Shown piece by piece: positions 6,319 to 16,656 of a stretch of DNA of 16,726 nt. Below the pieces are notes generated by a model. It was given only the letters and a program-made list of their open reading frames with translations. It had not been told where the DNA came from and searched no databases. The first letter of the stretch is position 1. Every line of letters begins with the position of its first letter. The DNA is from Candidatus Sumerlaeia bacterium. GTDB taxonomy: Bacteria > Sumerlaeota > Sumerlaeia > SLMS01. The DNA lies in the NCBI GenBank assembly GCA_038208905.1, contig JBBQYG010000083.1, positions 1 through 16,726 on the forward strand, in the 5' to 3' direction. The position numbers were made by a program, and so were the translations under genes.

Positions 6319-7449
6319 TCAGCCGCCCTTGAACAAGTGGTCGGTCAGCCAGCCCTCGATCAGCCAATCCCGCCCGAATGCTTGAAGGGTGGGATTGGAC
6401 AGATCGAGGGCTTGCGACATTTCGGCATTCGGAGTCGGAAGCGCGATGGGACCGAGGGCGGCGGGCCCGCCGCCGGCAAGCCGCGGGGCGATCCACGCCT
6501 CCACGCGATCAACGAGGCCCGCCTCCAGAAACGATCCCGCCACCGCGCGGCCACCCTCCACCGTGAGGGACTGAATTTCGCGCGCGCGGAGATGAAACAT
6601 CACGTCGGCCAGCGACACGCCGCGCGGCCCGCGGGCGACGCGGAGGACCTCGGCGCCGGCCCGGCGGAGCGGCTCCTCCAGATCGACGCGAGCATCATCG
6701 CAGCAAATAACCAGAGCCGGGCTGTCGCCACCCTCGGTTAGAAACCGCGCATCGGGGGTGAGGCGCAGGGCGCTATCGAGAACGATGCGCACCAGAGGCG
6801 GACCCGCCGGATTGTCAACGCGCGCGGTCAGGCGAGCGTCATCGCGCAGCACGGTCTCGATGCCGGCCAGCACCGCGTCCTGGGTCGAGCGGCGGCGGTG
6901 GACCTCTGCGCGGGCCTCTTCCGCGGTGATCCATTTCGAGTCGCCGCCGGGCACCGCCGTGCAGCCGTCCAGCGTCATCGCCCACTTCAGCGTGACCAGC
7001 GGCCTGCCGAGCCCGTGAAAGGTGACGAAGGCGGGATTGATCAAGGCCGCCTCCACGCCGCGGAGCCCCACCTGCACGGACACGCCGGCCGCCTGCAGTA
7101 TCTCCACGCCGCCACGGGCCGCCGCATGGGGATCGCGCATCGCCACCACCGCTCGCGCGATGCCGGCGGCGATCAGGGCCTCGCTGCATGGGCCCGTGCG
7201 GCCTTGGTGATTGCAGGGTTCCAGCGTGACGTACATGGTGGCGCCGCGCACGTCGCGGCCCGCCTGGCTGGCATCGCGGAGCGCATCGATCTCCGCGTGG
7301 GGCTGACCGGCGCGGCGGTGAAAGCCTTCGCCGAGGATGTCGCCCCCAGCGGACACGATCACCGCGCCCACGCACGGATTCGGCCGCGTGAGTCCCTGCG
7401 CGCGCGCGGCCAGTTCCAGCGCGCGGCCCATCAGTTCATGGGGTGTCAT
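6319..7449 (-). CDS. ribD: Bifunctional diaminohydroxyphosphoribosylaminopyrimidine deaminase / 5-amino-6-(5-phosphoribosylamino)uracil reductase
   Basis: Deaminase motifs PNPCVGAV, HAE and YVTLEPCNHQGRTGPC. Reductase motifs LKWAMTLDG, SKWIT, VEGG and LVDRV. Confidence 0.97.
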   Translation of the reverse strand: MTPHELMGRALELAARAQGLTRPNPCVGAVIVSAGGDILGEGFHRRAGQPHAEIDALRDASQAGRDVRGATMYVTLEPCNHQGRTGPCSEALIAAGIARAVVAMRDPHAAARGGVEILQAAGVSVQVGLRGVEAALINPAFVTFHGLGRPLVTLKWAMTLDGCTAVPGGDSKWITAEEARAEVHRRRSTQDAVLAGIETVLRDDARLTARVDNPAGPPLVRIVLDSALRLTPDARFLTEGGDSPALVICCDDARVDLEEPLRRAGAEVLRVARGPRGVSLADVMFHLRAREIQSLTVEGGRAVAGSFLEAGLVDRVEAWIAPRLAGGGPAALGPIALPTPNAEMSQALDLSNPTLQAFGRDWLIEGWLTDHLFKGG

Positions 7450-7477
7450 CGGATGGAGGAGGGGAACAACGGCGATT

Positions 7478-7980
<503 letters not shown>

Positions 7981-8020
7981 GAAAAGAACGGATGACCGAC
8001 CGGGCCAAGGCGGCCCATCG

Positions 8021-8071
8021 CCTGCCCTTCCCTGTCGTTCACTGCCGTTTCCCTGCCTTTCCCTGCCGTTA
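8021..8071. repeat. Tandem array of five imperfect 10-mers (consensus CCTGCCGTTC)
   Basis: cctgcccttc / cctgtcgttc / actgccgttt / c / cctgcctttc / cctgccgtta; the last unit overlaps the Hsp70 stop codon. Confidence 0.8.
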
Positions 8072-9826
8072 CGCTCCCGCTTCGATCTCCGTCATCACGC
8101 GGAGCACATCGTCGATGATGTCGTTGATGGCTTCCTCGTCGCCGGCTTCGATGGCGTTGCGGAGCTGGGTGGTCTGGGTCTTGAGGTCGCGCGTCATCGG
8201 ATGGGCGCCGGAGACGGCCATGACGGACTCGGCGCGTTCGATGATATTGCGGGCCTCGTCGCTGCGGGATTCCTTGATGCGGTCCTGCAGCATCTTGGTC
8301 ACGCGCTCGCGGGCTTCCTTGATCATGCGGTGCTTCTCGGGATCGCTCAGGCGGCTGTCTGTGGCCTGGATGGTGACGGCCTTCTCGACGCCGGTGGCAA
8401 GGTCCTCCGCGCGCACCTCCAGGATGCGGTCCGGGTTGAGGCGGAACGTCACCTCGATGCGCGGCACGCCGCGGGGCGCGGGGGTGATGCCCTCGATGCG
8501 GAGCAGGTCGAGGAAGGTGTTCTCCGAGGCGACGTTGCTTTCGCCCTCGTAGATCGGGAAGCTTATGGCCTCTTGGAAGTCGCGCGTCGTGGTGAAGATG
8601 TCCTTGGCCTCGGTGGGATACGTCGAGTTGCGCTCGATGATCGTTCCCATCTGGTCGTTCTGCAGGCCAACGCCGAGGGAGAACGGCGTCATGTGGATGA
8701 TGACGGGGCGATCCTTCCCTTGGTAGCGCGTGGCGTAGCTATCAGCGAGGTCGCCCTCCAGCGGGGCGAGCACGATGGTCTGCACCGCGGCGCCCATCGC
8801 CACGACTTCCTCGGGGGAAATGTCGCGGTGGGCGTTGCGGCCGCTGAACTCGCGGACGATGCGCTGCACCATCGGGATGCGCGTGGAACCACCGACCAGG
8901 AGCACATTGGTGATCTCGCCGACGGGCATCCCGGCGTCCTTGAGGGCGGCATCCATGGGGCCGCGCGTCGCCTGGACCAGGTCGCCGATCAGTTCCTCGA
9001 ACTTCTCCCGCGTCAGCACGTGGTCCAAGGTCATGGGACCCTTCTGCGTCATGGTGATCGCCTCGACGAGGATGTGGGTCTCCTTGAGTTCGGAGAGCTC
9101 GATCTTCGCCTCTTCCGCCGCTTCGCGCAGGCGCTGCTTGGCGATTGGGTCCTCGGTCAGGTCCACGCCAGTCTCGTTCTTGAAGACACTTATCAGGTAT
9201 TCGACGATGCGCCTGTCGAAGTCGTCGCCGCCCAGGCTGGTGTTGCCGCTGATGGCGCGGACCTGGAAGACGCCGGAAAGAATCTCGATGATGCTGACGT
9301 CGAACGTGCCGCCGCCAAGATCGTACACCAGGAGGATCTGGTCCTCGTCCTTGTCGAGGCCATAGGCGAGCGCCGCGGCGGTGGGCTCGTCGATGACGCG
9401 GCGGACGGTGAGGCCGGCGATCTCCCCGGCGTCCTTGGTGGCCGCGCGCTGGGTCTCGGTAAAGTAGGCGGGCACGGTGATCACCGCCTGGGTGATCTCC
9501 TCGCCAAAGTAGTCCTGAGTATCCTGCCGCAGCTTCTGCAGGATCATCGCGCTGATTTCCTGGGGCGTGAACTCCTTCCCCTCGATGCGGACGCGGTGGT
9601 TGGTGCCCATGTGGCGCTTGATGCTGAAGACCGTGCGGCCCACGTTCATGATGGCGCCGCGCTTGGCCTTCTTGCCGACGAGGATATCACCGGACTTGGT
9701 GAAGCCGACGACGGATGGAGTGAGCCGCTCCCCCAGGCTGTTGGGAACGATGAAGGGGCCGTTCTTCTCCATGACGGAGACCACCGAGTTGGTGGTGCCG
9801 AGGTCGATTCCGATGATCCTGCCCAT
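8069..9826 (-). CDS. Hsp70/DnaK-family chaperone, divergent paralogue (585 aa)
   Basis: GIDLGTTNS, TPSVV, SIKR, TVPAYF, EPTAAALAYG, YDLGGGTFDVS, LGGDDFD, AKIELS, LVGGSTRIP, TPFSLG and APRGVPRIEVTF. RBS AGGAGA at 9837-9842 (-). Linker and substrate-binding residues are non-canonical, so it is probably not the housekeeping dnaK. Confidence 0.96.
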   Translation of the reverse strand: MGRIIGIDLGTTNSVVSVMEKNGPFIVPNSLGERLTPSVVGFTKSGDILVGKKAKRGAIMNVGRTVFSIKRHMGTNHRVRIEGKEFTPQEISAMILQKLRQDTQDYFGEEITQAVITVPAYFTETQRAATKDAGEIAGLTVRRVIDEPTAAALAYGLDKDEDQILLVYDLGGGTFDVSIIEILSGVFQVRAISGNTSLGGDDFDRRIVEYLISVFKNETGVDLTEDPIAKQRLREAAEEAKIELSELKETHILVEAITMTQKGPMTLDHVLTREKFEELIGDLVQATRGPMDAALKDAGMPVGEITNVLLVGGSTRIPMVQRIVREFSGRNAHRDISPEEVVAMGAAVQTIVLAPLEGDLADSYATRYQGKDRPVIIHMTPFSLGVGLQNDQMGTIIERNSTYPTEAKDIFTTTRDFQEAISFPIYEGESNVASENTFLDLLRIEGITPAPRGVPRIEVTFRLNPDRILEVRAEDLATGVEKAVTIQATDSRLSDPEKHRMIKEARERVTKMLQDRIKESRSDEARNIIERAESVMAVSGAHPMTRDLKTQTTQLRNAIEAGDEEAINDIIDDVLRVMTEIEAGA

Positions 9827-9847
9827 GGCTCGTGAGTCTCCTGTAGG

Positions 9848-10414
9848 TTATTGAGCGACGACCACTTTGGCGTCCCTCACCAATTTGCCGCGAAAGAAAT
9901 ATCCGCGTTGCTGCTCCCGGACAATGGTATTCGGCGCGAATTCGCCGCGCGGCACCAGCGCCGTGACATCGTGCAACTCAAAGTCCACCTCGCAGCCCAC
10001 CGACGTGATCGGCACAAGGCCGATGCCCTCCAGCGTCCTGAGCAGGCGCACCCGGAGCGCGGAAACTGTCGCCATCCAATTGGCGAACGTCTCGTCCTTC
10101 TGGGCCACGCTCTCTCCAAACTCCACGATCCGGTCCAAGGCGTCAAGAGAGGGTAGCATCGATTTGGCGATCTGGCGGATTTCCGCCTCGGAGGAGCCGG
10201 TCGCCGCGCCCGGGGCGACCCGGGGGGCATCCGCCGCCCGCCGCCGCTCCGCCGCCGCCTTCAACGAATCCACCTGGCGATTCAACTCCGCCAGCACCGC
10301 CGTCACCGCGCCCGCAAGGTCCACCTCCGGCGCCAACTCCGTCTGCACCGGCAGCCGCTCCGCCGTGGGATCGAAGGTTCCCTTCCACATCCAGCGGTTC
10401 AGGGCGGCAAGCAT
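9848..10414 (-). CDS. GrpE-like nucleotide exchange factor (divergent)
   Basis: MLPSLDALDR (cf. LLPVLDNLER), long helices, then GCEVDFELHDV and IVREQQRGYFFRGKLVRDAKVVV (cf. GExFDPxxHEA and QKGY..RxLRPAxVxV). Lies 21 bp upstream of the Hsp70 gene. Confidence 0.9.
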   Translation of the reverse strand: MLAALNRWMWKGTFDPTAERLPVQTELAPEVDLAGAVTAVLAELNRQVDSLKAAAERRRAADAPRVAPGAATGSSEAEIRQIAKSMLPSLDALDRIVEFGESVAQKDETFANWMATVSALRVRLLRTLEGIGLVPITSVGCEVDFELHDVTALVPRGEFAPNTIVREQQRGYFFRGKLVRDAKVVVAQ

Positions 10415-10424
10415 TGGCGGGGCC

Positions 10425-11864
10425 TTATCGCTTCATTCTCAGGTCGGTGATCGCCTTCTTGGCCACCTGGTTCTTGGGATCGAGCGTCAGCACCTGCTGG
10501 TACTCCGCCAGTGCGCTGCGCACGTCGCCCTTCATGTCATAGGTGGCGGCGATCTCCAGGTGCACCTCGGCGCTTTTGGGCATCAGCGCCAGGAGCTGCT
10601 TGAAGTGAACCAGCGCCTGGGTGAAGATGCCCTTGGACCGGAAAGCCTTCCCCATGTTCAGGTGCGCCTTCACCAGGTGCTCCCGCGTGGTGGGGTTCTT
10701 GGGATCGATGGACATGCTGCGTTTCCAGCAGTTGAACGCCTCGTCCTTTTGCCCGCTGTTGAGCATCGCCCAGCCCAGCAGGTTCCACACGTCGGTATTC
10801 TTGGGGTGCTTGCGGGTGAGGATTTGCAGTTCCTCGCGGGCCTCGGCGAAGAGCTTCTCCTCCATCAACTTGTTGCAGAGCTGGAAGTGGGCGTCGAAGT
10901 CGTCGGGGTTTAGCTTCACGATGTCCCGGTTGCGTTCGATGCTGGCCGAGGCCGTTGGCGGCGCGGGCGGGCCGGAGGCGGCGAGCTTGGGCACCGCCGT
11001 GGAGGATCCACCCGTCGGGCGGGGCGCCGGCGGACCGAGCTTGGGCACCGCCGCGGAGGAGGCCACCGGCACGGGCTGGGACACGCGCACCTGGGCCGCC
11101 GAGCGGCGCGGCGCCGAGGCGATCAGGTCGGAGATGTCCTCCTGGTGGCCAAGCGCCTCCGTCAGCAGAAACCGCATGTAGTCGTTCGTGGGGTCGCGCT
11201 CGAGCTGGCGCTTCCACCGGGCCATGACTTCCTCCCAGTAGCGCACAGTGCGCACGGAATCGCGGCAGCGCTCTGAAAGGATCGCAAGGTTGTGGATGAT
11301 CTCCGTGCTGTCGGGGTCCATCTTGAGCGCCCGCTCCAGCAGCTCGATCGCCTCCTCGTTCAGGCCATGCAGCGCATAGGAAATCCCGAGGTTCGAGCAA
11401 GCGAGTTCGAGGTTGTGGCGCGCCCGCGCGTGGGAGGGCTCGTGCTCGAGCACCTCGGACCAATCGCGGATCGCCTCGCCCAGCAGCTTGCGCGTGACCA
11501 GATAGTGGGCCCGGGAAAACAGCACGCGCAGCAGGGCGGACTTCAGGTCGTCGTTCATGATGTGCGCCAGATAATCCCGACGCACCTTGTTGACCATCTC
11601 GTCGTCGGGCGGTTCCGGATCGCGCCACTTCTCGTCCTCCTGAAACAGGTACTCGCCCTGGGCCATGTTGAAGGAAAGGATGTCTTCCTTGGCGCGCGAC
11701 TTCACCTGCCGCAGGCGGTCATAGGCCTGCTGGATGACCATGAAGCGCTCTGTATGCTTTTCCGGGTCGTACTTCTTGACCAGATTGACGTAGGCCGCCT
11801 TGACCTCTTTCTCCGTGGAACTCTTGGGGATTCCAAGGATGGCGTAGGCGCTGTTCTCGATCAT
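10425..11864 (-). CDS. J-domain (HPD replaced by DPE) plus two TPR blocks separated by a Pro/Ala/Ser-rich linker (479 aa)
   Basis: MIENSAYAILGIPKSSTEKEVKAAYVNLVKKYDPEK...FMVIQQAYDRL aligns without gaps to the DnaJ N-terminus. TPR-like units include EAIELLERALKMDPDS, EAFNCWKRSMSIDPKN and ALAEYQQVLTLDPKN. Start placed at 11864 by J-domain register. Confidence 0.9.
   Translation of the reverse strand: MIENSAYAILGIPKSSTEKEVKAAYVNLVKKYDPEKHTERFMVIQQAYDRLRQVKSRAKEDILSFNMAQGEYLFQEDEKWRDPEPPDDEMVNKVRRDYLAHIMNDDLKSALLRVLFSRAHYLVTRKLLGEAIRDWSEVLEHEPSHARARHNLELACSNLGISYALHGLNEEAIELLERALKMDPDSTEIIHNLAILSERCRDSVRTVRYWEEVMARWKRQLERDPTNDYMRFLLTEALGHQEDISDLIASAPRRSAAQVRVSQPVPVASSAAVPKLGPPAPRPTGGSSTAVPKLAASGPPAPPTASASIERNRDIVKLNPDDFDAHFQLCNKLMEEKLFAEAREELQILTRKHPKNTDVWNLLGWAMLNSGQKDEAFNCWKRSMSIDPKNPTTREHLVKAHLNMGKAFRSKGIFTQALVHFKQLLALMPKSAEVHLEIAATYDMKGDVRSALAEYQQVLTLDPKNQVAKKAITDLRMKR
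10982..11060. repeat. 25-bp intragenic direct repeat (period 54 bp) encoding SS(A/T)AVPKL twice
   Basis: cgagcttgggcaccgccgtggagga (10982-11006) and cgagcttgggcaccgccgcggagga (11036-11060), one mismatch. Confidence 0.9.
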
Positions 11865-12047
11865 GGAATCTATCCGGTCTTCTGGTCGCTGGCTGGGGGA
11901 GGCGCCGAAGCCCTCCCGATGGACCCGGGCTGGGGCCCCGATAGGGAGAACGGGGGCGAGGCCAGCATGACTCCGTCCCCTCTGGTGTCGAGTAAAGGCC
12001 ACCCTCCGCACAGAGCAAGGAAAAACCCGGTGGCAGGGAACGGCGCG

Positions 12048-13046
12048 TCACACCGCCAGGCGCGCCGCCAGCTTCACCGCCGCGATGATGCTGCCCAGGC
12101 TCGCCGTCCCCGTTCCGGCGATGTCATAGGCGGTGCCGTGGTCGGGGCTGGTGCGCGGGAACGGAAGTCCCATCGTAACGTTCACGCCGTCCTCGAAGCT
12201 GACCATCTTGAAGGGGATCAGCCCCTGATCGTGGTACATGCAAAGGTGCGCCTGATACTTGCGCACTGACACGGGCGTAAAGGCCGAGTCGGGCACCACG
12301 GGGCCCTCCGCGTCGTAGCCTTCCTCGCGCAGGAGCCGCACCGCGGGCTCGATGATCTCGTCGTCCTCCGTGCCGAGAAGGCCGCTCTCACCCGAGTGGG
12401 GGTTCAGGCCCAGCACGGCGATCCGGGGCTTCTGGCCGCGAAGGCGCTCCACCGCGTCGGCAAGCAGCTCCCCCACGGCAACGATGCGCGCGGTATCCAG
12501 CGAGCCGGGGACCGACGCCAGCGACTGGTGAATCGTGACCAGGCCGACGGCGAGGCGGTCGCTGTACATCATCATGGCGTAGTTGGGAGAGGCGGTGGCC
12601 TCCCCGAAGATCTCCGTGTGGCCGGGCGCCTCGATACCGCCCAGGCTAAGCGCCAGCTTGTTGATCGGCGCCGTGGTCACGCCCTGGATCGCGCCGGACC
12701 ACGCAAGGCGGATCGACGCGCGTATATACTCGTAGCAGGCGCGCCCGCCCTCCGCGCAGGGGAGCGCCATCGTCACGGGCTCCGCAAGGAATCCGCAGTC
12801 CACCATCTCGATGGCGTCCCCGGGCACCGGCGTGGAGGAGAGCGCGTCGGCCACGGTGGCCTCTGTATAGACGGCGAATTCGCGATCGCAGCGCGCCACC
12901 GGGCGGATGGCCTCCAGCACCGATCTGTCACCGATCAGCACCGGGCGGCACACGGTGCGGATCTCCCGCAGCCCAGCCACGCGCAGGGCGATCTCCGGCC
13001 CGATGCCGGCGGGGTCTCCGATGGTGATGCCGATGGTAGGTAGCAT
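12048..13046 (-). CDS. pdxA: 4-hydroxythreonine-4-phosphate dehydrogenase (PdxA/PdxA2 family)
   Basis: GDPAGIGPE, TAPINK, GHTE, VTIH, LNPHSGE, MYHDQGLIPFK and RTSPDHGTAYDIAG. Start placed at MLPTIG (13046). Confidence 0.95.
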   Translation of the reverse strand: MLPTIGITIGDPAGIGPEIALRVAGLREIRTVCRPVLIGDRSVLEAIRPVARCDREFAVYTEATVADALSSTPVPGDAIEMVDCGFLAEPVTMALPCAEGGRACYEYIRASIRLAWSGAIQGVTTAPINKLALSLGGIEAPGHTEIFGEATASPNYAMMMYSDRLAVGLVTIHQSLASVPGSLDTARIVAVGELLADAVERLRGQKPRIAVLGLNPHSGESGLLGTEDDEIIEPAVRLLREEGYDAEGPVVPDSAFTPVSVRKYQAHLCMYHDQGLIPFKMVSFEDGVNVTMGLPFPRTSPDHGTAYDIAGTGTASLGSIIAAVKLAARLAV

Positions 13047-14958: not shown

Positions 14959-16656
14959 TCAACCCGACCCATCGCCGCCGCGCCGCTCGCGAATCAGGGC
15001 CTGGGCCCGATCCACATTCCCTTGCGCGATGCCGCGATAGTATTCCAACCCCGGCTGGGTGAACACCTCCAGCGCCGCGCGATAGGCCGCCACCGCCTCC
15101 TCCAGCCTCGCCGTCCCGCTCTCCCGCCCGCCGAGGGTCGCGAGGGCGTTGCCGAGGTTGTTCTGCGTCATCGCCCAGTCGAGGGGAACGCGCTCGCGAG
15201 GATACTCCTTCAAGATGCTATTCAGAAGGGCGATCTCTTCCTCGAGCGCTTCGTTGTCCCCCTTATCTACTCCTTGGTTGTGCAATGCGTCCGCCGCGCG
15301 TTGGCGATAAGTTCGGGCCGCTGTGGGGTCATGCTCGGACATCAGCTTGAAGGCCTCGCCGAAGAGATTGGCTGCCTCCCGGTATGCCCATCGGAGGAGC
15401 GCCGCCTCGGCGCGCGTGGCGCGGATATCGGCAGCATCTCGATCTTGGCGATTAAGCTCCTCGCGCAGCAGCAGCCGCGACTCGTCCACCTTCTGTTGAA
15501 CACCAATCAGGAGTCGTTCCGCCTCAACAAGTCGCCCTTCCGTGAGCGCCGCTCGGGCGAGCCGCAACACCTCGCCAGCCTCGCGGGAAAAGAGTCCCAA
15601 CCTCGCAAGCCGCTCTTCTAGTACTTTGTATCGCGTGGCGAATTCCGTGAGTTTCTCCGGCCATTTCTCGAAGGACACCTCATCACCCTTCAACTGGACA
15701 AGACAGGCACCGATGGCCCCTTTCGCGATTCCCAGTTCTAGGCTAAGTTTCTCGTTTCTCGCTGTTACGTCTGGGAGAATTGCGAGTATGAGGCCCAGCT
15801 TTCCCTTGATATCCCCGATTCCGGACTCCATCCGGTCGAGCTGCGGTTTCATATCACTGATACTGCGCTCCAGAAGTAGAATCCCGGAGTCCAGTCCCGC
15901 TAGATGACACTTCAACTCCTTGCGTGTGACACCAACGGCGTGGAGGAGTACGTGTTGGCCTTGCTCCGCCTCGCCCTGAATCTGACGCAGCACCGCAAGC
16001 GTGGTCTTCTGTCCGCCCAGAATCTCCTCCGTCGCGCTAAGCTGGAAGGCGCGCATCTTCACTTCGTCGTGCTCGAGGACCTGCTTGAAGTCATGCACGA
16101 ACCAGCGGGGAAGTTCGCGGACGACATAGTCCCGGATGGAGTCGCGGTAGGAGAGATAGCCGAGTCCGGCCTCGTCGATGATGGCATCGGCGAGTTCCCG
16201 CCATGCTTCCTCCGAGAAGATGGCATCGCCCTCTCGCGCGGCGACGAGGAGGAGCGGCAGGTGGGGCTCCGAGGCAGCGGCGAACCCAGTGAGTTCCGCC
16301 GCTGCGATGCGCTTCCACACGCGCATCGCGGCCGGGCCGAGGCTATCGAGCTTGGCCGCCTCGTCGGGAAACTTTTCCTTCAGCCGCATCGTGAAGAAGA
16401 GCTCCATCGACTCGCCGACGGCGGCGACCAGATCCTCGCTGCGGAGCACGTTCTCTGCCTGGGGCGAGCGAGTGATCCGCTTATCGATCTCGCTGGCGAT
16501 GAGGTTGCCCGCGATACCTGCGCCGGCGCGAATGACCTCAAGAGCGAGTGCCGCACCACTCGCGACGCCCGCAGGCGTAGCGATCAAGGCCCCAATGGCA
16601 ATGCTCGCCCCCATGGTGACCAGTGATCCGGCGCAGATGCAGAAGTTTCGATTCAT
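14959..16656 (-). CDS. Hypothetical protein: unknown N-terminal domain, coiled coil and C-terminal TPR region of the RERVPLDWAMTQNNLG type (565 aa)
   Basis: The C-terminal GDNEALEE..RERVPLDWAMTQNNLGNALATLGGRESGTARLEEAVAAYRAALE is a recognisable TPR-type repeat. The central region is heptad-rich and the N-terminus is Gly/Ala-rich and hydrophobic. Alternative start at 16614. Confidence 0.85.
   Translation of the reverse strand: MNRNFCICAGSLVTMGASIAIGALIATPAGVASGAALALEVIRAGAGIAGNLIASEIDKRITRSPQAENVLRSEDLVAAVGESMELFFTMRLKEKFPDEAAKLDSLGPAAMRVWKRIAAAELTGFAAASEPHLPLLLVAAREGDAIFSEEAWRELADAIIDEAGLGYLSYRDSIRDYVVRELPRWFVHDFKQVLEHDEVKMRAFQLSATEEILGGQKTTLAVLRQIQGEAEQGQHVLLHAVGVTRKELKCHLAGLDSGILLLERSISDMKPQLDRMESGIGDIKGKLGLILAILPDVTARNEKLSLELGIAKGAIGACLVQLKGDEVSFEKWPEKLTEFATRYKVLEERLARLGLFSREAGEVLRLARAALTEGRLVEAERLLIGVQQKVDESRLLLREELNRQDRDAADIRATRAEAALLRWAYREAANLFGEAFKLMSEHDPTAARTYRQRAADALHNQGVDKGDNEALEEEIALLNSILKEYPRERVPLDWAMTQNNLGNALATLGGRESGTARLEEAVAAYRAALEVFTQPGLEYYRGIAQGNVDRAQALIRERRGGDGSG

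Follow-up and report, generated by a model that had tools for sequence, protein, structure and literature searches.

The window analysed here, positions 1 to 16,726 of contig JBBQYG010000083.1 of a Candidatus Sumerlaeia bacterium (assembly GCA_038208905.1), carries three consecutive chaperone-type genes on its minus strand. The first (10425..11864) encodes a 479-aa J-like protein with tetratricopeptide repeats (TPR), as judged from its translation, from Pfam TPR families and from 54 homologues. It is followed by a gene for a 188-aa GrpE-like nucleotide exchange factor (9848..10414; Pfam GrpE, PF01025, 69.7 bits vs 25.8), which starts 10 nt past the stop codon of the J-like gene, and, 21 nt further on, by the gene for a specialised Hsp70 of 585 aa (8069..9826; Pfam HSP70, 587 bits). 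The J-type domain of the first protein (residues 1-63, 11676..11864, minus strand, supported by Pfam PF00226, predicted helices and Foldseek) does not carry the His-Pro-Asp (HPD) motif: codons 33-35 (11760..11768) read Asp-Pro-Glu (DPE) in the translation, in the alignments and in 52 of 52 homologues. The meaning of this replacement, in relation to the Hsp70 encoded beside it, is the subject of the present analysis.

Translation of the open reading frame (ORF) from Met 11864 begins MIENSAYAILGIPKSSTEKEVKAAYVNLVKKYDPEKHTERFMVIQQAYDRL and places D-P-E at 11768-11760, with V and N at residues 26 and 27, exactly as read in a preliminary description made from the DNA letters. The start at 11864 is preferred over an in-frame upstream GTG at 12011 because the homologues begin within a few residues of the former. 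BLASTP against E. coli DnaJ (reference sequence taken from NC_000913) aligned residues 1-38 of both proteins position for position, followed by a 6-residue gap after residue 38 and before helix III. The register proposed in the preliminary description (Y7, I9-L10-G11, A24-Y25, L28, K31-Y32) was recovered in this alignment, and in HMMER alignments 'kydpek' falls under the 'kyhpdk' of solved J-domains. The Pfam DnaJ profile (PF00226), suggested there as a check, matched residues 6-59 with 44.3 bits (cut-off 27.8, E 1.9e-11), covering profile positions 2-61 of 63.

An AlphaFold2 (AF2) model of residues 1-140, with a mean predicted local distance difference test score (pLDDT) of 82, contains helices at residues 6-10, 18-31, 38-52 and 54-63; helix II corresponds to 18-31 and helix III to 38-52, with a short loop connecting them. 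The top Foldseek matches in the Protein Data Bank (PDB) were all J-domains, with root-mean-square deviations (rmsd) of 1.6-1.9 Å over about 60 columns (for example 2och, rmsd 1.7 Å, template-modelling score TM(target) 0.82); the best E value was 0.02, none reaching 0.001, as is to be expected of a domain of this size. Both methods thus predict the J fold that the preliminary description had supposed, four helices with a helix II-loop-helix III hairpin, with D-P-E in the loop instead of the His-Pro-Asp that strictly defines a functional J-domain protein. The span first given for the domain, 11712-11864, was right for helices I-III and too short for the whole domain, which extends to about 11676.

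Beyond the J-type domain, the protein consists of a conserved segment (residues ~57-140) and two blocks of TPR (~150-250 and ~305-475; TPR_2, 103.8 bits in Pfam), separated by a Pro/Ala-rich spacer. The conserved segment (11445-11695) directly adjoins the J-type domain and follows the pattern R-A-x-E-D-x-x-T-x-N-x-x-x-G-E-F-L-F-x-x-x-E, in which R57, E60, D61, G70, F74 and E78 are invariant or nearly so. In the AF2 model this segment forms a small hairpin of low confidence, residues 61-70 having a pLDDT of 53. Its role could be that of a pseudo-substrate or of a further contact with the Hsp70.

A word-indexed search with residues 1-140 returned 54 homologues, 41-69% identical over those residues, and the named ones were all from Candidatus Sumerlaeota. 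Besides D33, P34 and E35, residues H37, T38, R40, M42 and I44 were invariant in the 52 that were aligned, sequences that are only 39-68% identical to the window protein over its whole length. Residues 29-44 therefore hold 8 invariant columns against a mean column identity of 49% for the whole alignment, and the J region is, by this measure, the best-conserved part of the protein. Among the 52 genes compared at the DNA level (the window plus 51 genome loci), Asp33 is encoded by GAC in 25 and GAT in 27, Pro34 by CCG in 24, CCC in 20, CCA in 5 and CCT in 3, and Glu35 by GAA in 22 and GAG in 30. With a profile of the N-terminal 140 residues (E <= 1e-20), the gene was matched in 70 of the 75 genomes of the phylum Sumerlaeota, including 43 of 43 high-quality ones, where it is nearly always in single copy. 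It belongs to the core genes of the phylum and evolves under strong purifying selection.

These data bear on the simplest explanation of the motif, that the TPR protein has ceased to work with any Hsp70 and its HPD J-domain has decayed. Two of the three HPD positions differ, and four of the five basic residues of helices II and III are lost as well (see below), as decay would have it. Nonetheless, the motif cannot be taken as decay, because it is fixed in all 52 genes despite synonymous codon turnover, and the orthologues are not random at positions 33-35, the outcome that the preliminary description had associated with it. The invariance of the flanking residues, the near-universal presence of the gene in the phylum, the conserved synteny with Hsp70 and the high conservation of the J region point the same way, so that decay is effectively excluded and keeps next to no probability.

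The gene order of the window is widely shared. J-like, GrpE-like and Hsp70 genes follow each other on one strand in 36 of 51 related loci, and in 5 more the Hsp70 gene directly follows the J-like gene. ORF clustering across 71 loci showed that only these three genes recur (in 71, 56 and 52 loci, respectively); apart from these, recurrence was limited to lineage-specific neighbours and to ORFs that are antisense shadows. One sub-lineage (L024, L031, L033 and L064) has about 200 nt between the J-like and Hsp70 genes and no GrpE-like gene there, so the unit does not require the exchange factor. In the window, the GrpE-like protein is the weakest of the three GrpE matches of the genome, and for it all NCBIfam GrpE equivalogs remain far under their cut-offs.

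The source genome encodes five full-length Hsp70 proteins and gives seven J-domain matches in addition to the three for GrpE. The other five clear J-domains are all HPD, and their genes sit on other contigs. The operon Hsp70 is 43% identical to the best, canonical DnaK of the genome. It stays below the cut-off of the NCBIfam DnaK model PRK00290 (643.8 bits vs 648) and well below that of TIGR02350 (622.3 vs 822.55), and it covers positions 1-593 of 599 of Pfam HSP70, so that the substrate-binding domain is complete, its lid included. In a quick maximum-likelihood tree, rooted at the midpoint only, 14 operon Hsp70s from Sumerlaeota and from the Omnitrophota-type loci described below formed one clade with a long stem (Shimodaira-Hasegawa-like approximate likelihood ratio test, SH-aLRT, 100), apart from both DnaK/HscA and an HscC-like group. 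The canonical DnaK is encoded on contig C109 and the three further full-length paralogues on C170, C43 and C77 (L009-L011). The C43 paralogue lies in a 1255-aa open frame, which suggests a fusion, and the C77 paralogue groups with E. coli HscA in the same tree.

In the solved complex of E. coli DnaJ and DnaK (5NRO), as described in PMC8215388, J-domain residues R22, K26, R27, K48 and K51 face DnaK residues E206, D211, E217 and D477, H33 bonds the backbone carbonyl of linker residue L391, P34 packs on P419, and D35 bonds R167 and Q378. Within DnaK, R167 pairs with D393 and D481, and D35 competes for it (PMC7289447). Comparison of both faces with the window family revealed changes on each side. 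In the J-like proteins, position 26 is V, I or F in 52 of 52 and position 27 is basic in none of the family, Met stands at the K48 equivalent in every sequence and Gln at the K51 equivalent in 50 of the 52, while K or R is retained at position 22 in all 52; four of the five basic residues are therefore gone.

On the Hsp70 side (E. coli numbering), E217 is replaced by Q in 34 of 41 sequences and by R in the other 7, D477 by R or K (38/40), D479 by N or T (39/40), D393 by H (41/41), N170 by D (41/41), N147 by T (40/42) and G482 by R (40/40). In the window protein, which has D170, Q217 and R477 at the contact positions, the D146 codon (9389..9391, minus strand; E. coli N170) lies three residues past the retained R143 (E. 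coli R167). The interdomain linker (residues 365-378, 8693..8734, minus strand) lacks the VLLLD of DnaK and reads PVIIH, the last residue, H378, being the equivalent of D393; an insertion of about 11 residues precedes the hydrophobic core VII, which is itself retained. Other residues of the catalytic and docking machinery are kept: E206, R167, Q378 (40/41), P419, D481, D8, K70, R151, T199 and D201. N170, D393 and E217 are all present in the four other Hsp70 paralogues of the genome.

Such a linker raises the alternative that this Hsp70 has become a 'DnaK derivative', unresponsive to J-domains, and helps the canonical DnaK, for example as an Hsp110-like exchange factor, with the J-like/TPR protein as an accessory unrelated to ATPase triggering. 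A 2026 review (PMC13580251) proposes such a role where the linkers of bacterial DnaK paralogues are highly modified, and the window linker is strongly modified by both the 11-residue insertion and the D393H change. Nevertheless, the protein retains a full substrate-binding domain with its lid and the catalytic and allosteric residues D8, K70, R151, R167, T199, D201, P419 and D481. A GrpE-like gene of its own would also be superfluous if the protein were itself an exchange factor, and the retained linker core VII is where the model described next predicts a J-domain contact. We thus consider this alternative quite improbable.

Co-folding with the adjacent Hsp70 in the presence of ATP, as the preliminary description had recommended, gave a canonical docking pose. 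The Hsp70 (31-row alignment), J residues 1-80 (52-row alignment), ATP and Mg were modelled together, yielding ipSAE values of 0.71, 0.73 and 0.73 for the pair, against 0.00, 0.02 and 0.01 for three controls; the ipSAE mark used is reached by 58 of 80 solved complexes and by 2 of 110 mismatched pairs. The runs shared at least 82% of their contacts, with a partner pLDDT of 71. J residues 26, 29 and 30 contact Hsp70 residues 183-186 (E. coli strand 212-215, subdomain IIa), the linker core (375-377) contacts J residues 29-30, 33-34 and 45, and P34, T38, F41 and M42 of the J-type domain lie on P404 (E. coli P419), with T38 also touching 479-480. The conserved segment that follows the J-type domain was not placed in this predicted interface. 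The arrangement reproduces that of 5NRO; it shows likeness to canonical J/Hsp70 pairs and supports binding, and no more.

The motif of the window is not an isolated variant. A profile search of 1.84 billion representative sequences gave 24,445 matches at E <= 0.001, 16 of them at E <= 1e-30. Among the best 150 of the 24,445, the triads were PPE (46), HPD (23), SPE (21), DPE (15), TPE (15), NPE (13), HPE (3), GPE (2), PPD (2) and others (9), one match having no aligned residues. On this comparison, which goes beyond the preliminary description, the window domain is one branch of a large and widespread short-loop xPE class of J-domains that includes DjlB and DjlC (HPE). In the aligned sequences P34 and E35 are invariant across the whole class, and residue 33 varies. 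Glu35 and the short loop are thus the marks of a class with at least one working member, and the replacement of His33 is the new element. Many of the PPE, TPE and SPE proteins are 400-470 aa long (for example P0106, P0112 and P0119) and end in a cysteine motif, which we take to be of the SEC-C zinc type.

Loci of other members of the class were collected by motif, so that the adjacency rates given here are no measure of that among HPD genes, for which adjacency is also common. A scan for the [S/N]PE type with a 7-sequence alignment found 72 loci, 58 of them with a same-strand Hsp70 gene beside. Sixteen of these loci, of an Omnitrophota type, hold the full J-like/TPR, GrpE-like and Hsp70 unit, and their Hsp70s bear the window signature (T147, D170, Q217, H393, R477, N479 and R482, plus the linker insertion). 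The remaining [S/N]PE loci belong to Planctomycetota, Myxococcota, Cyanobacteria, Bacillota and further phyla; their Hsp70s have D393 and, save for T in three Paenibacillus loci, N170. E217 is mostly kept, three loci having D instead. These Hsp70s carry other linker variants and are in some cases HscC-like, one Paenibacillus protein reaching 44% identity. With a degenerate DNA pattern, 79 loci of the FPPE type were found across many phyla, with a same-strand Hsp70 gene within 2 kb in 70 of them (47 upstream, 23 downstream); among the 9 without one, the DNA is incomplete in 5. In the class as a whole, the neighbouring Hsp70 is usually one other than DnaK.

A strict charge swap between D33 and H393 was considered and rejected, since the Omnitrophota-type loci with S or N at position 33 keep the H393/D170/Q217/R477 Hsp70. 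A different Hsp70 residue does vary with position 33: two positions before the linker core, K or R is found in 38 of 40 D33 loci (Sumerlaeota), and G in 16 of 16 S/N33 loci of the Omnitrophota type. This covariation, seen in alignments, fits a possible salt bridge between D33 and K/R373.

We consider it probable that the DPE domain is an orthogonal activator of its own Hsp70, part of a co-adapted, private J/Hsp70/GrpE machine whose surfaces insulate it from the DnaK/DnaJ system. According to this scheme, the J-like TPR co-chaperone would be co-produced with a dedicated Hsp70 and a dedicated GrpE-type exchange factor, and its DPE domain would dock at the usual site, the junction of nucleotide-binding domain, linker and beta-subdomain of the cognate Hsp70. 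The canonical charge pairs K26/R27-E217 and K48-D477 would have given way to non-charged or reversed residues on both sides. P34 would pack against the conserved beta-subdomain proline, and E35 may stand in for D35 in contacting the arginine that is retained (R167 in E. coli). We infer that docking would then trigger ATP hydrolysis in the cognate Hsp70 only, that the altered surfaces would insulate the pair from the DnaK/DnaJ system of the cell, and that the TPR part may bring clients or location. Within the xPE class, Asp has become fixed at position 33 in the Sumerlaeota lineage.

The preliminary description had offered two readings, a J-domain rewired for the neighbouring Hsp70 or a J-like inhibitory or scaffold domain. 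The first is favoured because of the synteny, the matching changes on the Hsp70 side, the canonical pose of the co-fold and the kinship with DjlB and DjlC. The selection acting on the motif and the class-wide pairing with neighbouring Hsp70 genes speak for it too. The second stays as a rival that we find rather unlikely: the domain would be a non-stimulating tether, scaffold or brake, similar in concept to Pam16, anchoring the TPR protein to the Hsp70, or to a different J-protein, or else keeping the Hsp70 in its ATP state until a client arrives. Predicted docking shows binding at most, not activation, and the His of HPD is absent; in canonical systems the H33Q change kills stimulation and binding can persist (PMC8215388). 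Moreover, a 2026 review (PMC13254874) presents non-HPD J-domains as presumably non-functional 'type IV' proteins and describes Pam16, with DKE, as an inhibitor of Pam18. A conserved tail on the Hsp70 could also offer the TPR part another point of attachment, independent of the J-type domain.

Against such a tether or brake, the conserved unit has no second J gene of HPD type, so that the private Hsp70 would be left without an activator of its own, and its J-facing surface has diverged at E217, D477, D393 and N170, which argues against its being served by the HPD proteins of the genome. Pam16 works through its pairing with Pam18, and no such partner was seen in the unit. The closest characterised relative, DjlC (HPE), is reported to be an activator (PMC8215388). 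Finally, P34 and E35 are invariant throughout the class, where a mere tether would be expected to tolerate changes in the catalytic loop.

The Hsp70 tail just mentioned, E-[I/V/M]-E-[A/S]-[G/A/S]-[A/G], follows a variable lid at the C-terminus of the operon protein (8069-8120) and is found in 30 related loci. In eukaryotic Hsp70 an EEVD tail pairs with TPR proteins, and the operon tail, next to a TPR neighbour, recalls such a pairing.

Several observations weigh against an orthogonal activator. Neither the GrpE-like nor the Hsp70 gene lies beside the J-like gene in the available DNA of 10 of the 51 related loci. Five of those genomes were searched: four have an orthologous Hsp70 elsewhere, 66-70% identical and behind a GrpE-like gene, and the fifth has two Hsp70 copies interrupted by contig ends. 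Adjacency alone is in any case weak evidence, neighbouring dnaK and dnaJ genes being common. The loss of D211 was not counted among the changes at the interface, because the 4-residue deletion that removes this residue is present in the canonical DnaK of the genome too, which makes the loss non-specific. The Hsp70 signature H393, D170, Q217 and R477 is identical in the 16 S/N33 loci, and these changes therefore do not track D33. The difference between K/R and G near the linker core amounts to a single phylogenetic contrast, at a residue that is not named in the co-fold interface. The co-fold score itself may reflect memory of the solved complex 5NRO, its own alignments and small molecules lie outside the calibration of the score, and the contacts named with confidence include neither R143 (E. 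coli R167) nor H378. Finally, there is no assayed member of the class without His33, and H33Q abolishes stimulation in every canonical system tested (PMC8215388, PMC13254874).

Around the unit, the 183-nt spacer between pdxA and the J-like gene (11865..12047) is, from its coordinates, the presumed promoter region of the three genes on the minus strand. No sigma-70-like promoter site was found in 7400-12300, nor any element resembling CIRCE (controlling inverted repeat of chaperone expression) with up to 3 mismatches across the whole window. A terminator-like hairpin (8007-7993) lies right past the stop codon of the Hsp70 gene. The flanking genes are of the housekeeping type (chorismate synthase, arginine decarboxylase, RibD, PdxA and glutamine synthetase). 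Between the Hsp70 gene and ribD, a 198-aa ORF (7446-8042, minus strand) overlaps the start of ribD, has a low-complexity look and gave no Pfam match; this ORF is probably spurious. Two genes upstream of the unit, with the opposite-strand glnA intervening, a 565-aa ORF (14959-16656, minus strand) shows in its translation a probable N-terminal membrane segment and gave weak TPR-like Pfam matches only (TPR_10, E 0.013). This ORF is not recurrent in the related loci, and no relation to the unit was seen. A search with PADLOC for defence systems gave weak TPR matches only for the J-like protein and none for the GrpE-like protein or the Hsp70.

In the literature searched, no J-like domains of DPE or xPE type were found described, although the survey of bacterial J proteins by Barriot et al. 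2020, cited in PMC8215388, and the supplements of PMC10410713 could list such variants, and no Sumerlaeota Hsp70 was found described either ('Sumerlaeota' with 'Hsp70' returned 0 papers). In its treatment of the motif, PMC13254874 holds HPD to be essential and HPE to be the sole tolerated replacement, and calls it 'enigmatic' whether other deviations are accidental or selected. For bacterial DnaK paralogues with altered linkers, PMC13580251 suggests that control by J-domains has been lost. The locus bears on both statements: it is a clear case of strong purifying selection on a motif that is not HPD and has no His, it combines that motif with a dedicated exchange factor and an Hsp70 that matches it, and it points to a large xPE class whose genes, in many phyla, neighbour those of specialised Hsp70s.

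It is possible, though we would put it at somewhat short of an even chance, that the unit of Sumerlaeota and of the Omnitrophota-type loci is a fourth bacterial Hsp70 machine beside DnaK, HscA and HscC, with an activator that lacks the 'essential' His, and that the xPE domains (PPE, SPE, TPE, NPE, DPE and HPE) are a widespread family of private keys to several, mutually insulated Hsp70 systems within one cell. If so, J-triggered hydrolysis would need only Pro34 and an acidic residue 35, given a co-adapted Hsp70 linker region. The three small, soluble proteins of the unit offer a direct test of the indispensability of His33 and of how J/Hsp70 specificity is encoded, which would be useful for understanding bacteria with multiple Hsp70s and for designing orthogonal chaperone pairs.

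We compared the window pair with known J/Hsp70 systems. Pam16/Tim16 likewise has a J fold without HPD and a Glu as third residue of the motif (DKE, according to PMC13254874). Pro34, which is kept in the DPE of the window, is absent from DKE, and Pam16 binds the J-domain of an HPD partner, Pam18, of which the conserved unit of the window holds none; no Pam16 chain was present among 51 PDB sequence matches of the J-like protein. HscB and HscA likewise form a private J/Hsp70 pair encoded together in bacteria, for iron-sulfur (Fe-S) assembly. In its account of HscB, PMC8215388 describes a functional J-domain partner of HscA and reports no departure from HPD. The kinship of HscB with the window domain is limited to the J fold, HscB structures ranking low in Foldseek (prob 0.84-0.91), and no Fe-S gene context was found around the unit.

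The combination of TPR with a J-type domain is shared with eukaryotic DNAJC7 and DNAJC3. In those two proteins the J-domain is C-terminal and carries HPD, in contrast to the N-terminal, DPE-bearing domain of the window. 'DnaJ-TPR' is listed among the most populated class C architectures (PMC10410713).

With DnaJ/DnaK (5NRO), the window pair shares the fold, the register up to residue 38 and the predicted docking site, including the packing of P34 on a beta-subdomain proline, as well as the R22-type basic residue and E206. It differs from that pair in having DPE for HPD, in the loss of K26, R27, K48 and K51 and in a loop shorter by six residues on the J side, and, on the Hsp70 side, in the absence of acids at positions 217 and 477 and in the loss of D393.

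The closest likeness is to DjlB and DjlC. HPE occurs in about 1% of J-domains, these two among them (PMC10410713), and the ATPase of HscC is reported to be stimulated only by DjlC (PMC8215388). Like the window domain, DjlB and DjlC have Glu35 and a short loop between motif and helix III: no gap is needed against DjlB 3-58 or DjlC 3-47 through motif, loop and helix III, apart from one single-residue gap late in helix III of the DjlB alignment. They are also encoded near a non-DnaK Hsp70. However, they keep His33 where the window family has Asp in 52 of 52, and the partner is of another kind: the window Hsp70 shares 31% identity with HscC and 44% with DnaK, falls in a different clade from HscC (quick tree, SH-aLRT 100) and has the D393H and N170D changes and the linker insertion that HscC lacks. 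Moreover, the literature describes DjlB and DjlC as membrane proteins held by a tail anchor, whereas the J-like protein of the window carries TPR repeats, and the window unit, unlike DjlB/DjlC-HscC, includes a dedicated GrpE-like gene.

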